From an uncultured Bdellovibrionales bacterium (lineage in GTDB: Bacteria > Patescibacteriota > Minisyncoccia > Moranbacterales > UBA1568), in NCBI GenBank assembly GCA_964428075.1, contig CAYRWQ010000001.1, positions 1,806 through 65,805 of the forward strand: a DNA stretch of 64,000 bases. Direction: 5' to 3'. Position 1 is the first letter of the stretch. Each line of letters starts with the position of its first letter. This document shows positions 54,001 to 60,000 of this stretch, piece by piece. Position numbers: made by a program.

Positions 54001-57000
54001 CTTACAAAACCGGTAACGTATTGTTTCGCACTCCGATCGGACCCGTCTTGATTGAAATTAGTATCCAGCACGATGAGCCGCCATTCTCCGATATCCCGAA
54101 TCGCGTGATTGTCTTCCAAACCTAATACCTCACGCACTTCAGATTTCGTGAGTGAACGCAAATCATGGTTCCCAAGCGCATACAGACGAGGCGCGGTTAA
54201 TCCCTGAAACAGGGCGTCGGCTACAGCCAATTGTGCCTTGGCTTTCTCTGGTGGCACACCCGTACTCTCGATATAATCTCCGCCACCAACCACAATATCC
54301 GGCACAAAAACATCATTGAGATACTTAACTACCTGCTCCAACTCATACGGTGCTTGCAAAGTTAACTTGTGCTTCATACGCTTTCGATGACCGTATTCCC
54401 AGTCGGTCACAAAACCAACCTTCAATACACTCACTTCATCCATCGAAACCGGTTGTGGGCGTACAAAGAGCGGAAGCTCCATACGCTGACCACGCTGCCA
54501 ATACCATCCTGTGAAACCCGCAATGCAAATTGTCGCCCCGGCAATACACAACACAATGACACGAGTTCTTTTCCGATCAACATGCAAGATTACTGCCCAT
54601 TTCATAACGTTATACACAAAAAGTTATTCGCGCTATCCACCTCTCTTCGAGGCGTGTTTTTTTAAGTGAATACTCTGGTATATCTTTTCCAATTTTTGTG
54701 CTGATTGTACCCAGGTGAAACGTTCAATTCGTTTCCGGTTCATCTCGCCCTGATTCGCCAATAACACCGGGTCACCGAGCATATGGATAAGTAACTTGGC
54801 AAGTCCAACTGCCGAGACCTCGGACGCATAATTACCACCCGCGCCAAGATACTCGCGATTATTATTCGTGTCAAAACAAGCAACGGGCAATCCGGCTCCC
54901 ATATACTGGAGTAGTTTCCCGCTCGCCTGTCTCACTTGTGATTCCTTTGGATCAACGCCGATATCTGCCATCTGGAGTATACCGGGCAAATCGAAATACA
55001 AGAGAGGCGAAATGACCGTAACGTGCTCACGAAACACATCGGTGGCAAGATATGACTCAATCTTATCTATCGGAAATCCAGCAATGATAAAGTGCACCTG
55101 CAAACCCTGTGCGGCGACCAATGGAATTGCGTCCAAAAAAAACTGAATACCCTTATTCGGAATAAGTGCACCTGTATAGATCACTACTGTCTTATCTTGT
55201 GGTATACCATAACGCTCACGCCAGATCCTCCGTTCCGGCTTCTGAGGGAACATATCAAGACGCGTTCCATCCAGCAATGTTTCAACTGCCCTCCCATGCC
55301 GAATATGCCGTACCGACTCCGTGTTTTCCCAGGAGCTTGTAACTGCCACATCACCGAGGTTATCAATGACCTCCTCTATCCAACGAAAGAATTTCCGAAG
55401 TATGCCCTGACCCAAATATTGGTGTGAAACCATTTCCTGAACCAAGCTCCCATGAAAATCCGCGACTAAGCCAATACGTTGCCAGAAAAGTAGCTTCTGT
55501 ACAATCCAACCAATCAACGCGCCCTCGTGCAAATGTCCATGAATGATATCGGGGTGTTTCATCCGTGCAAGGAAAAACACTTTTTTGATCAGCAAGAGAT
55601 CTAAAATAATTTTCTGCCAATCTGGTCCCGCCTCAAACTTACGATACCAAAAAAGAAACCGACGGATACGCCGAACATCAACTTTCGATTCCAGTCCTGC
55701 TGGAATATTCTTACCAATATGATAAGTGGCAATGGTTATTTCATGCCCAAGATATTCAAGCGCGAGCGCTTCTTCAAGGATACGGATGTGTGTGCCCCGA
55801 TCGGAAAAAAATGGTGTTGGAGCGACAACAAGCACCTTCAATTTTCGGACAGTCTGAGACATAGAAAACAACACAGTATCTCAATCTTATCATCCCAGCT
55901 TATCCTATTTCAGGAAAAACAAAAAGTCACCGTAGGCAATTCCGACCCTCAAAAAGGTCAATTAAAGATCTTGAGGCGCAATCGAAAGCGTGCCGCCAGG
56001 ACCCACTGAGCCGACAATCACCTTCCGTGCTACGACATCCTCTACATGTTCAGCAATGTAGCGATTAACCGAACGTGCGCCGAATACCGGATCATACCCA
56101 AGTTCAACGATCCGTGCCGTAACGCCAGGTTCAACGACAATCTGAATATTTTTCTGTTCTTGCACCTGTTCAACGAATTTCCGCAATTTCAACTCAGCGA
56201 TATGCTCCATCTGCGACGTTGACAGCATTTCAAAAAATACGATGGTATCAAAACGATTCAAAAACTCGAGCCGAAAAACACCATTACTCACCACCTGATC
56301 AACGACCCGCTTCCGCATAACGCTAATCGGTATATGCTCTTGAGAGATTTCTTTCACTAAGGCAGAACCGGCATTGGAGGTTGCCGTGATAATGGCATTT
56401 CGGAAACTAATTTTTTCACCAAAAGCGTCAGTAAGCATACCTTCATCGAGCACCTGTAAAAAGATATCCAAAACCTTTGGATGCGCCTTTTCGATTTCAT
56501 CAAGAAGTACGATGCAATATGGATGCTCGTTCATCGCTTTGGTCAAGATACCGGCCGTACCATCCTCTGGAGAACCCAGCAAGCGACTCAAACTATCCGC
56601 TGCTTGAAATTCGCTCATATCAAGACGAAGCATTTTTTCCTCGTCATCAAAAATGGACTCAGCCAATGCTTTCACTGTCTCAGTCTTCCCAACCCCAGTG
56701 GGCCCAAGAAACAGAAAACTTCCAAGAGGACGCTTCAAATCATGAAAACCGGCTCGAGCCTTACGAAGTATCTGTGATACCTGGTTGACCGCCTCATCCT
56801 GCCCGACAACCCGTTCATGTAGTTCGGACTCAAGATTGAGCAGTCTCGTCTGTTCATCCTCACTGATATCCCCGAGCGGCATACCCGTCTTGAGACTCAC
56901 GTATTCATTCACGACTTTTTCATTCAAGAAACGACTAGGCTGATTACGGAAATAAATCATCACCTGCTGTGCCAAGTCGAGCACGCGTTCTGGGTACGGC

Positions 57001-60000
57001 ATCTCCCAATTATAACGCCGAGATGACAGAATAAGTGCTTGAATAGCCTGCAGTGTCAGGATGACCTGTTCCCGTTCAGTCAACGCAAAAAACTGGATCA
57101 AGATCGCCTGATTCTCAACAATATTTGGCTGACGGATATAGACTGTTTCAAAAAATTTCAGAATCTGCTCATCCTTTTTAGCGAGAGAATGGTACCGGGT
57201 CGCAACTGCCATGCCGATAAAACGAAATGTAGGCAGTCCAAGGAACTCTTCAAGTAAATGCGTGATATCAGGTCGCGCCGGATCTGTACCCAAAAACAAA
57301 TCTACATCCTCAACCACCAACAGAACATTCCCTGCAGCAGTCGCCTCTTGGAACAACTCTCTCAACGTATACTCAATGTTCTGGTTAGAAGCTAATGTGT
57401 CCTCTACAACCTTTCCCAAGTTAAAAATAAGTACTCGAAGATCGTTCAGCGCGCTTTTTTCAGGGAAAGTACGTTCACGGATCATTTTGGCAAGATGATG
57501 CACGAACATTTTCTTCCCAATACCTGGTTCACCAACCAAGAAGATATTGTTTTGTACCGGCCGTTCAAGAACAACCAGAGCGACTTGAAGTTCGGCCTGT
57601 CTCCCAATCAGCCCCATCTTCCCATATTCAGTCTCATCAGAATAAGACAAGTCAAGACAGTATCGATCCAGGTGCGGTGTATATCCAAAACGCCAACCTT
57701 TCCCGATAGCAATTTTCTTCGAATGATTTTCTGGGAGCCAAAATCTCCACGCATACGTTCGCTCTATAAATGCCCGCTGCTCAATATCAATGGCAGAGGT
57801 AAGCATTTCCTGAGTCACGTTTTTCATCTTCAGGAAGGTACGAAAAGAATACTCACTCACAAAAGCATCTTTCGGCACATCGCGAATCTCGATTTCCAAG
57901 CGTGCTAATACACGCTTGAACCAAGACTGCTCTCGCAGTCTGACAAAATCAATAGCGTCAACTGGCAACACTTCCGGCACACGTATCGAAAAACAGACTA
58001 TGGCAAATAATACTCCTACGCCACTCGCAAGGTATATCCACTGCGTATACGAGAAATCTCCATTCAGCATCCAGTAGACCACACCGCCAGCAATCGGCAG
58101 TACCGGTGCCGTCAAAAACCAAAAATAAAGTATTATCACGCCAACCGAAGAAATGAGAAACGCAATCATTCCGAACAAAACGACCGGTAGTCGAACACAC
58201 ATGCCAAGAAAACGTGACAGAGTGTTATTAATGTATCTCTTCAACGCCTGGATCGGATGGAAGCCTCGTTCGTGGCGATATTCGATATCTCGTTTCCAAG
58301 GCGCAAACAGCGTACACGCGAGTTCCAATGTGTTAAAACGGAACAATATCAAACTCAAAATCAACCACACGTTGGTCAACCCGTACTGCACACCCTCCCG
58401 GTAATACCACCGAACAAAAAGAAAAAGGAAACTCATCAAATATTTTTTTATTTTCCCCTCTGACCTCATTCTACGTCCCTCTTCAGACTTTGACAACAAT
58501 CAAGGAACGAATGCTATCCCTAGCGGGCATCTCACATGATCAGAAAATCAAAATGTATTTGAAAGAACTCGCGTTTCAGCCTATACTTCATCCTAATGGA
58601 CACACCATCTCTCACAAAAAAAGCTCAGGTTTTCTTTACGCTCATCGGGTTCTCGGTGCTTGTATTTGTTTGGTTCTCACTTCTGCTCGGAATCAGCGGT
58701 GTTTTCTTCCTCCCAATCATCGCATGCGGTTTCGCTCTCATTGGTACTCTTGCTTGTTTCCTCTTCCTGAAGATGCTCTCGCTGCTTGATGTACCTGAAC
58801 GCGCCTTTCTGATCATACTCATCGTCATCGCGCTTCTCAGCATCCTCCCAAGCATAGACAACCCAACCGTATTTACCGGGCGTGACCAGGGCTCCATCGC
58901 TACGGCCGCTATTGCGCTCGCGGAACACCACGACTTCCGATTCTCGCTCCCCATAATACATACTTTCTTCTCGGTGTATGGACCAGGAGCCGCCTACCAC
59001 TTCCCTGGATTTTTTTACACAAATCATGGCCAGCTCCTCACTCAATTCCCTCTCACATATGCCTCATGGATTGGAAGTTTCTTCCTTCTCTTCGAGCTAA
59101 AAGGCATCGCCATCGGTAACAGTATACTCCTCTCACTCTCACTCATTTCTTTTTATTTCCTACTCCGACTCTTCCTTCATCGATTCCTCGCCTTCCTCGG
59201 TACGCTTCTCTTCGCGACCTCATTTCTTATTGTCTGGTTCGGAAAATTCACCCTGACCGAAAACCTGGCTCTTTTCCTCTTTGTTTTTCTCTCTCTCACG
59301 TTAACACGTTTCCATATCGCAGGACGCTTTCTTGACTACGCATCCAGTCTTGGAGCAGCAATGCTCTTATGCTTTACCCGTATCGAGGGTTTTGCCATAC
59401 TCCCGATTGTCCTCATACTCTTGTACCGAACACCAGAAGCGAGACATATCTGGAAGCTCTACCCAAAAAAAAGTCTCCTGATTCCAGCATGCCTCTTTCT
59501 CATCACCGGAGTTGCCACTTTCCCCGATGCCTTACCGTTCTATGTCACTATCGGCAAAGCACTCCAAAGCTTTCTCACCGAACTTGCTATGCCTAGTGTC
59601 GCAACCGCCTCGGTAAATTCACCCTTTTTCTCACTGCTCGTTCTCTTCTTTCTCTATGGACTACTCGGCGTCATGGCTCTCGGCCTCATCGGCATTCCAT
59701 TCCTCCTGCGCCAAAAAAAATATCTCGCTCTCATTCCTGTGGTGTTGGCCATCCCCACTTTCGCATACTTCGTCTTCCCGAATATCACCCCTGACCATCC
59801 TTGGATGCTTCGCCGCTATCTCCCAACCATATACCCCGCCCTCGTCTTCTCTTGTCTCATCAGCATCTCTCTTTACTGCAGTCCGAAGCGACATTTCCCA
59901 CTTCCACTCCCAACCAAGTGGTCACGTCGCCTGATGCTCTCTCTCTGTTTCGTGAGTCTCTTCGCCCTCCAAATACCCGCCTGGTACCGAGGACTCCTCA

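Follow-up and report, generated by a model that had tools for sequence, protein, structure and literature searches.

What can a Clp ring do without threading? A large natural family of ATPases poses this question, and one of its genes lies in the stretch of DNA analyzed here, hereafter the window: 64,000 nucleotides (nt; positions 1,806 to 65,805, forward strand, of contig CAYRWQ010000001.1 in assembly GCA_964428075.1), deposited under the title of an uncultured Bdellovibrionales bacterium and placed by GTDB in the Patescibacteriota (Minisyncoccia; Moranbacterales; UBA1568). Hsp100 proteins are the classic example of motors that thread their substrates hand over hand with tyrosines of the pore loops, and the anatomy of this family argues against that standard mechanism. 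Its members appear to burn ATP in the second AAA+ ring (D2), yet have discarded the pore tyrosines, the chemistry of the first ring (D1), the ClpP loop and the M-domain, and have gained a membrane partner domain with no known fold. We define the family here as the PWKR-module/Clp-like ATPases, in which a PWKR membrane module is either fused to a Clp-like ATPase or encoded immediately upstream of it. The reading we favor, which as judged from sequence stands about equal chances of being right or wrong, is that of a D2-driven membrane remodeller in Patescibacteria that works without canonical threading.

The gene is laid out as follows. Residue numbers here and below count from ATG 58469, except that Pfam positions of the whole-protein scan use an 845-residue numbering:
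55962..58469, minus strand: whole gene of the Clp/Hsp100-like membrane ATPase, 835 amino acids (aa) counted from ATG 58469
57975..58469, minus strand: 'PWKR' membrane module, residues 1-165, from alignment and AlphaFold2
57615..57974, minus strand: probable truncated Clp_N remnant and family-specific linker RFW..EN....IGKGWRFGYTPHLDRY..DLS, residues 166-285, from alignment and profile-profile comparison
56880..57614, minus strand: D1 AAA+ module, an apparent pseudo-ATPase with P-loop glycines and lysine kept
55965..56879, minus strand: D2 AAA+ module (AAA_2 and ClpB_D2-small), all catalytic motifs kept

By fold and by sequence, the protein is a class I (two-ring) Clp/Hsp100. Pfam matched AAA_2 (PF07724, E = 1.8e-45, residues 590-752) and ClpB_D2-small (PF10431, E = 2.1e-17) in the C-terminal half and returned weak generic P-loop matches only for D1; the first ~270 residues had no Pfam match and were unmatched by any model in the whole-protein NCBIfam scan. 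A search of Protein Data Bank (PDB) sequences matched ClpB, ClpC and ClpA at E = 1e-99 to 1e-73, with D1 of the ATPase aligned to D1 of all three. The AlphaFold2 model of the full-length monomer (predicted local distance difference test, pLDDT, 86.6) found ClpB and ClpC as its top Foldseek matches, among which near-full-length ClpB and ClpC1/ClpC chains gave target-normalized TM-scores of 0.76-0.84. The preliminary description of the DNA, made from the sequence alone, is supported in its view of the protein as a genuine membrane-tethered Clp/Hsp100.

Motif counts for the two rings were made on 168 full-length relatives aligned with 13 canonical ClpB-type sequences, and the motifs of this protein were read from a phmmer alignment to E. 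coli ClpB, with which MAFFT agreed. The relevant positions are:
57510..57533, minus strand: D1 Walker A GEPGIGKK (GEPGVGKT in ClpB; threonine to lysine), from alignment
57366..57398, minus strand: D1 pore-loop position TLASNQNIEYT (AKYRGEFEER in ClpB), from alignment
57300..57317, minus strand: D1 Walker B VVEDVD (FIDELH in ClpB; ED for DE), from alignment
56550..56576, minus strand: D2 pore-loop remnant GSPEDGTAG, from alignment; GYVG gone
56274..56372, minus strand: counterpart of the stretch that holds the ClpP-docking loop in ClpA, ClpC and ClpX; helical here, about ClpB length

D1 has lost the Walker A threonine, the Walker B glutamate, the arginine fingers and the pore-loop tyrosine. A canonical state was rare at the first two sites across the relatives (Walker A GK[ST] 7/168, Walker B DE 13/168) and absent at the others, with no RR arginine fingers and no aromatic residue at the D1 pore-tyrosine position (both 0/168). 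The P-loop glycines were invariant in a 40-sequence alignment, and the P-loop lysine was kept in 128 of the relatives and replaced by arginine in 39. GEPGIGKK and VVEDVD had already been singled out as inactive-looking; the phmmer and MAFFT alignments returned the same readings, and realignment did not make the D1 motifs canonical in either. D1 thus looks hydrolysis-dead from its motifs. D2 presents the opposite picture, with Walker A GPTGVGKT, Walker B LLDEIE, sensor-1 TSN, arginine finger NRFD and sensor-2 GAR, so that the earlier account of intact Walker motifs, sensor-1 and sensor-2 holds. Its large subdomain is 50% identical to canonical ClpB, and its canonical residues were near-universal among the relatives (GKT 168/168, Walker B DE 167/168, sensor-1 Asn 168/168, arginine finger 167/168, sensor-2 Arg 167/168). 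D2 accordingly looks catalytically competent. A trans-acting arginine finger in AAA+ proteins implies an oligomeric ring, and its conservation in D2 points to such a ring here.

The part of D2 that has not been conserved is the one with which an Hsp100 grips its substrate; the D2 pore-loop tyrosine is needed for activity in ClpB and Hsp104. From the glycine to the conserved G-x-L, the segment reads GSPEDGTAGIL in this protein against GAPPGYVGYEEGGYL in ClpB, 11 residues instead of 15. The remnant (GSPEDGTAG) is acidic, and the 24 residues around it contain no aromatic. None of the relatives had a D2 GYVG (0/168), and 127 of the 168 shared the 11-residue length. Entropy in the interior of the remnant (residues 634-639) was 2.5-3.6 bits, with five of six columns at or above 3.0; these were the most variable columns of D2, whose large subdomain had a mean of 1.6 bits. 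Pore-loop loss is therefore a property of the whole family and not peculiar to one gene. Within the family, pairwise identity averaged 51.5% over the large subdomain of D2, 31.7% over that of D1 and ~25% over the N-terminal regions. Conservation of the D2 residues set against decay of D1 and the pore loops suggests that selection has kept D2 hydrolysis while releasing D1 chemistry and the canonical grip. The preliminary description had proposed an unfoldase or export motor, and here it needs revision, since both roles presume threading and the pore-loop-1 aromatics of both rings are gone in 168 of 168 relatives.

Two further Hsp100 elements are missing. In the PDB-sequence alignments, the M-domains of ClpB (residues 405-505) and ClpC (residues 382-463) had no counterpart, which settles their suspected absence; D1 passes into D2 within about 20 residues, where the AlphaFold2 model has short helices only. 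ClpA aligns in one continuous stretch because it too lacks an M-domain. A ClpP-docking [ILVM]G[FL] tripeptide was not found between D2 sensor-1 and the arginine finger (residues 700-732), as had been noted for IGF/IGL, and was likewise missing there in 165 of 166 relatives. Lacking both ClpP docking and an M-domain, the protein should be neither a protease partner, in line with the earlier view, nor a DnaK-coupled disaggregase, and its sequence suggests an ATPase that acts independently of ClpP and DnaK.

What the family has gained lies at the N-terminus, where the module contains:
58287..58301, minus strand: PWKRD motif, residues 57-61; conservation of P, W and K 90% or higher in a 27-sequence module alignment
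58191..58226, minus strand: NTLSRFLGMCVR, juxtamembrane motif, residues 82-93, from the same 27-sequence module alignment
58110..58190, minus strand: predicted first membrane-spanning helix, residues 94-120, no charged residue, AlphaFold2
57987..58052, minus strand: predicted second membrane-spanning helix, residues 140-161, shared by 81 of the 136 fused-type relatives

The consensus of the juxtamembrane motif is NxxSRxxGxxVR, in which N82 and R93 are invariant and G89 nearly so. An AlphaFold2 model of the module built from the 27-sequence alignment (pLDDT 89.6) comprises an amphipathic helix (residues 2-44), the PWKRD loop, a long helix (72-120) that has NxxSRxxGxxVR in its first part and an uncharged stretch of 27 residues at its end, a short helix (124-134) and an apolar helix (140-161); the full-length model reproduced the same structure. 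The module had no credible Pfam match at E <= 10, no NCBIfam family and no PDB fold match. In the 136 fused-type relatives, lysine and arginine averaged 1.28 per 10 aa ahead of the transmembrane (TM) helices and 1.80 behind them, against 0.53 in the intervening loop. A cytoplasmic ATPase requires both ends of the module to be inside, and this charge bias fits; together with the monomer AlphaFold2 model, it leads us to infer an N-in, C-in topology with two membrane crossings. The membrane region described earlier is thus real, but the four TM helices then counted in it resolve in the model into two spanning helices, a long amphipathic one and a short one between the spans.

The preliminary description also held that the usual Clp N-domain had been replaced. 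A membrane module does precede D1, but total replacement was rejected in favor of a probable truncated remnant. Clp_N (PF02861) had no Pfam match in the protein, and a direct hhalign comparison of this clade with canonical Clp_N was not significant (5.5% probability). A chain of profile-profile comparisons nevertheless links the two: canonical Clp_N matched the corresponding region of ATPases whose module is encoded separately (96% probability, E = 2e-9), that split-type region matched the long regions of fused-type proteins (99%, E = 3e-18), and these matched the ~70-aa region of this clade (96%, E = 2e-9). This points to residues ~166-250 as a truncated Clp_N remnant, so that the Clp N-domain appears not to have been wholly replaced.

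The gene itself is an uninterrupted minus-strand open reading frame (ORF), 55962..58499, with 845 codons when read from TTG 58499. ATG 58469 is the start of a 100%-identical database protein (P0001, 835 aa) and is preceded by GAGGG 7 nt upstream; ATG 58436, where the homologues P0003 and P0008 have their N-termini, is also a candidate. With three candidates, and a promoter-like TTGTCA-17-TAGAAT overlapping 58469, the start codon is uncertain within 21 codons, a difference that has no bearing on the other results, and ATG 58469 is probably the start. The fused layout was shared by 136 of the 168 aligned relatives and by 51 of the 55 best database matches, which covered 92-100% of the ATPase at 34-100% identity (798-908 aa). 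Because those 51 come from independent samples, the fusion of hydrophobic region and ATPase is genuine and neither a frameshift nor an assembly artefact. The earlier report of one gene with a TM region fused to an ATPase therefore stands; no stop or frameshift splits the TM region from the rest of 55962..58499, and the homologues are fused too.

Family membership is recognized by a W[YH]Y helix, [AS]PW[KR]R, NxxSRxxGxxVR and the TM hairpin, combined with a degenerate D1 and a D2 without a pore loop; all of these defining motifs are found in this protein. Run against 1.84 billion proteins clustered at 50% identity, the module profile retrieved 1,932 cluster representatives at E <= 1e-3, of which 1,253 reached E <= 1e-10. 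Scanning one genome per species with the module alignment gave 78 loci, of which 77 were titled as Patescibacteria lineages, as 'bacterium', or as probably mislabelled 'Bdellovibrionales' or 'Pseudobdellovibrionaceae'; the titles include Moranbacteria, Parcubacteria group, Portnoybacteria, Paceibacterota, Berkelbacteria and Saccharibacteria. The family is thus known here almost only from Patescibacteria, where it is widespread and mis-annotated as a Clp protease subunit; these bacteria have reduced genomes and their cultivated members are episymbionts. We found no description of the family in the literature on Clp/AAA+ proteins in Patescibacteria or the candidate phyla radiation, or on membrane-anchored Hsp100 proteins.

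The sole module match titled outside Patescibacteria was L084, a 2.6-kb contig assigned to Candidatus Omnitrophota, which is short and may be mis-binned or reflect a rare transfer. About 25 third-party-annotated records of metagenome-assembled genomes that carry the locus were titled 'uncultured Bdellovibrionales' or 'Pseudobdellovibrionaceae bacterium' (L009, L011, L012, L014, L019, L022 and ~20 more). Most of them also carry Moranbacteria-type neighbor genes, and the titles almost certainly assign Patescibacteria bins to the wrong taxon.

In 14 of the 78 loci the module is encoded on its own, by a PWKR gene of 120-165 aa that precedes a Clp-like ATPase gene in the same orientation. It was directly upstream in 12 of these (gap -91 to +150 nt, ATPase 809-857 aa); in the other two, L065 (6432-6812) and L075 (3032-3430, its ATPase known from a tblastn match alone), an ORF of ~126-132 aa lies between the PWKR and ATPase genes and could be a third component in some lineages. 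Three further split-type ATPases also had a small PWKR gene upstream (3/3), bringing the split form to 17 loci overall. In two of these three records the small gene was uncalled (L085, ~2615-3000, and L086, ~2620-3000; the loci of P0061 and P0079), and the ~125-aa partner gene is probably under-annotated across Patescibacteria, a point of some consequence for annotation. Some module-only short matches end inside the TM region, yet separate small genes are real, and we rejected the notion that all such matches are contig-end fragments.

Split-type ATPases lack the PWKR module and had hydrophobic N-terminal helices of their own in all five inspected (L065, L067, L078, L080, L081), after which they continue with a Clp_N-like region. 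Since these ATPases have a membrane anchor of their own, the module must do more than tether them, and a role as mere anchor was rejected. That the two components occur as a fusion in some lineages and as neighboring genes in others likewise marks the PWKR module as a partner and not only a tether.

A probable split-type pair is present in a genome for which transposon insertion sequencing (Tn-seq) is available. According to Tables S1 and S2 of Wang et al. (Cell 2023, PMC10633639), which report Tn-seq of the Saccharibacterium Southlakia epibionticum, SEML1_0700 is an 'AAA family ATPase' (2,583 bp, 860 aa) with Pfam assignments to D1 (~258-421), AAA_2 (544-706) and D2-small (713-792) and none to Clp_N, and is overlapped upstream by a hypothetical gene, SEML1_0701 (384 bp, 127 aa). 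Both were listed there as non-essential in passages 0 and 1, with a growth defect at passage 2, and the same genome was listed with a canonical ClpC (SEML1_0512, which has a UVR motif and two Clp_N repeats) and a ClpP (SEML1_0493), neither of them essential (PMC10633639). As given in those tables, the SEML1_0700/SEML1_0701 layout matches the split form exactly, and by length, Pfam coordinates and gene order the two are probable family members. If so, the tabulated data would make the family a specialized paralogue beside a normal ClpC-ClpP, with its two genes sharing a phenotype. S. epibionticum is genetically tractable and, going by the same tables, holds a probable member pair with a matching mild fitness defect, so that what the ring does is open to experiment.

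Comparison with known systems narrows the possibilities. The protein resembles ClpB and ClpC in its two tandem AAA+ modules, its AAA_2-type D2 with ClpB_D2-small, its canonical D2 motifs and its putative Clp_N-derived segment before D1, and differs from both in the integral-membrane N-terminal module, the degenerate D1, the absence of both pore-loop tyrosines and the absence of an M-domain, hence of a control site for DnaK or MecA; unlike ClpC, it also lacks the ClpP loop. With ClpA it shares the missing M-domain and alignment in one stretch, but ClpA has an active D1, pore-loop tyrosines and an IGL ClpP-docking loop, none of which is found here. The Clp_N of ClpA is soluble and binds ClpS. 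Scores under the NCBIfam equivalog models fell far below every cut-off: 401.7 bits against 1,232.1 for the ClpB equivalog TIGR03346 and 353.5 against 1,417 for NF008118 (ClpB); 362.7 against 993.15 for the ClpA equivalog TIGR02639 and 256.1 against 1,350 for NF008263 (ClpA); and 318.5 against 884.95 for the TssH equivalog TIGR03345. Identity with ClpB was rejected on the missing M-domain and equivalog cut-offs; with ClpA, ClpC or ClpE on the missing ClpP-docking loop and ClpA cut-offs; and with ClpV/TssH on its score and on a neighborhood without type VI secretion system genes.

Membrane-associated AAA+ proteins offer further parallels. The predicted N-in, C-in anchoring by two TM helices, with an ATPase ring just under the cytoplasmic face of the membrane, resembles FtsH, whose only AAA module is of the classical clade, has an aromatic pore loop and is fused to an M41 protease; the present protein has two Clp-type modules, no pore-loop aromatic and no protease domain, and identity with FtsH was rejected as Pfam matched no Peptidase_M41. 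Plasmodium HSP101 of the PTEX complex, represented among the PDB sequence matches by entries 6e10 and 6e11, is likewise an Hsp100 at a membrane with a non-proteolytic role. HSP101 is soluble, docks on EXP2/PTEX150, keeps its pore-loop tyrosines and threads cargo. Torsins (PMC5425593) are Clp-D2-related AAA+ proteins without an aromatic pore-loop residue that act at a membrane with a dedicated membrane partner, LAP1 or LULL1. The lack of a pore aromatic is shared, and the PWKR module would correspond to the dedicated partner, fused or adjacent, although we found no homology of the module to LAP1 or LULL1. Torsins have one AAA module, receive an arginine finger from their activator and reside in the lumen of the endoplasmic reticulum; the present family is bacterial and cytoplasmic, with a second degenerate ring and its own D2 arginine finger in 167 of 168 members, and Torsin identity was rejected on these two modules and this finger. 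The nearest mechanistic analogies may be FtsH, for anchoring, and Torsin with LAP1/LULL1.

A remodeller of the kind we favor would work as follows. Subunits would assemble into a hexamer below the membrane, in which D1 and the Clp_N remnant face the bilayer and the PWKR module has its two ends in the cytoplasm. D1 would serve as an assembly or scaffold ring that may bind nucleotide without hydrolyzing it, leaving D2 as the sole motor. Because the canonical gripping loops are missing and what is left is under no constraint, ATP cycling in D2 is most likely transmitted as a rigid-body movement to the Clp_N remnant and the PWKR module, which would serve to remodel or gate a partner or complex embedded in the membrane instead of threading a polypeptide hand over hand. 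The client in Moranbacteria may belong to the adjacent envelope-glycan machinery. Only tentatively would we extend this to an Hsp100 class of 'membrane actuators', possible but rather doubtful as a whole, in which threading has been abandoned and the active ring drives the PWKR module directly in the service of envelope or cell-surface biogenesis. More speculative still, by analogy with LAP1 completing the Torsin active site, the conserved basic PWKR loop might dock on the D1 site that lacks an arginine finger.

Several points weigh against D2-driven remodelling without canonical threading. Some aromatic residue occurs in the D2 loop remnant of 20 of the 168 relatives, and threading could survive without the canonical aromatics if other loop residues or the membrane module contact the substrate. 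The topology rests on charge bias and a monomer AlphaFold2 model, and the apolar span differs among relatives, forming two classes of ~30-49 and ~60-79 residues. The assignment of SEML1_0700/SEML1_0701, made from the published tables, uses length, Pfam coordinates and gene order only. The main rival builds on the first of these points: a threading dislocase or quality-control motor, like FtsH, Msp1 or Cdc48, that would use non-canonical pore residues and to which the PWKR module would hand over membrane substrates. The intact Hsp100 double-ring fold, the fully conserved D2 motor, the predicted FtsH-like anchoring, the 20 members with an aromatic and the probable retention of a remnant of Clp_N, which is a substrate and adaptor site in ClpA and ClpC, are all in keeping with such a motor. 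We nonetheless rate it clearly below remodelling, as somewhat unlikely, because the canonical pore-loop-1 aromatic is missing from both rings in every relative, the D2 remnant is shortened, acidic here and the least constrained stretch of D2, the tyrosine it replaces is required in ClpB and Hsp104, and neither a protease domain nor a ClpP loop is present to dispose of extracted proteins.

The degenerate D1 and lost pore loops would also suit an ATP-dependent switch or scaffold without a mechanical client, whose ATP state would control assembly of the PWKR module or other membrane proteins. SMAX1 and D53 are degenerate ClpB-like signaling proteins of this sort, SMAX1 was among the weak PDB sequence matches, and the probable Saccharibacterial homologue is non-essential in the published tables, with a late growth defect only. 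Conservation of the D2 hydrolysis residues, including the trans arginine finger, in 167-168 of 168 relatives argues for real ATP turnover in a ring, and a mean pairwise identity of 51.5% in the D2 large subdomain is unlike a decayed scaffold, which makes a switch unlikely. An export or secretion motor for a glycosylated envelope substrate, working with the neighboring glycan genes much as HSP101 of PTEX feeds a membrane pore, strikes us as more improbable again. The gene does head a same-strand run of GT4 glycosyltransferase, metallophosphoesterase and epimerase genes, divergent from a gene for a 604-aa polytopic protein. The same layout was seen in 33-48 of 84 loci, where the neighbors have diverged to 24-45% identity. 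It is, however, confined to Moranbacteria, and members in Gottesmanbacteria, Portnoybacteria, Saccharibacteria, Berkelbacteria and others have unrelated housekeeping genes around them; the ATPase rings have to be cytoplasmic, there is no pore-loop grip to push a chain, and no secretion-system component was identified near the gene. Practically no weight attaches to two genes joined by sequencing or assembly error, or to a decaying pseudogene: the module is truly a separate gene in other lineages, but the ORF is uninterrupted, 51 of 55 matches and 136 of 168 relatives have the fused layout, conservation is strong and the AlphaFold2 model is confident across the junction of module and ATPase.

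The glycan neighborhood belongs to one envelope-glycan region of about 38 kb (window ~25000-63000). It holds at least six GT4 glycosyltransferases, a TylF-type O-methyltransferase, epimerases, a Polysacc_synt_2 dehydratase and a Wzz-like protein, together with the following genes:
30497-31777: Wzx-like protein, within the glycan region
41386-43230: carbamoyltransferase, within the glycan region
52493..55874, minus strand: GT4 glycosyltransferase, metallophosphoesterase and NAD-dependent sugar epimerase, downstream of the ATPase gene on the same strand
58596-60410, plus strand: 604-aa polytopic membrane protein, divergent from the ATPase gene
60420-61589, plus strand: 389-aa protein, divergent from the ATPase gene
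61602-62009, plus strand: 135-aa protein, divergent from the ATPase gene

No terminator-like site was found between the ATPase gene and the GT4 gene. The downstream order of GT4, metallophosphoesterase and epimerase is conserved in Moranbacteria, as are the 604-aa and 389-aa divergent neighbors, which we treat as context only. Among the 33-48 of 84 loci with these neighbors, all of Moranbacteria type, the adjoining ATPases were down to 29% identical to the present one. The 604-aa, 389-aa and 135-aa proteins had no credible Pfam or NCBIfam match, and a profile of the 604-aa protein had no match among PDB sequences; all 432 of its homologues are 'hypothetical' proteins from Moranbacteria, and the P..F.GRDQG that is invariant in an early loop may indicate a GT-C-type glycosyltransferase.

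Glycan neighbors were absent around family members in Portnoybacteria, Saccharibacteria, Berkelbacteria, Gottesmanbacteria and others, where the family adjoins genes for SecA, ribonucleotide reductase, tRNA synthetases, ribosomal proteins or DNA polymerase III beta. The run of envelope-glycan genes in which the preliminary description placed the ATPase is thus present here and across Moranbacteria and missing in other lineages of the family. Being confined to Moranbacteria, it cannot define the general function of the family and was rejected in that capacity, though the link may matter in Moranbacteria.

Some minor features of the window were also recorded. Two 427-aa GT90-like proteins (28482-29765 and 32972-34255) look like paralogues. 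Two minus-strand ORFs, 43621-45084 and 45026-45883, overlap by 59 nt and may represent a truncated or frameshifted epimerase gene; the upstream ORF matches positions 137-227 of the Epimerase profile only, the C-terminal part. No Rfam family reached its gathering score in the 64 kb, so that no tRNA, rRNA or riboswitch was detected. GC skew was negative in every 2-kb interval of the 64 kb (-0.09 to -0.31), regardless of gene strand.

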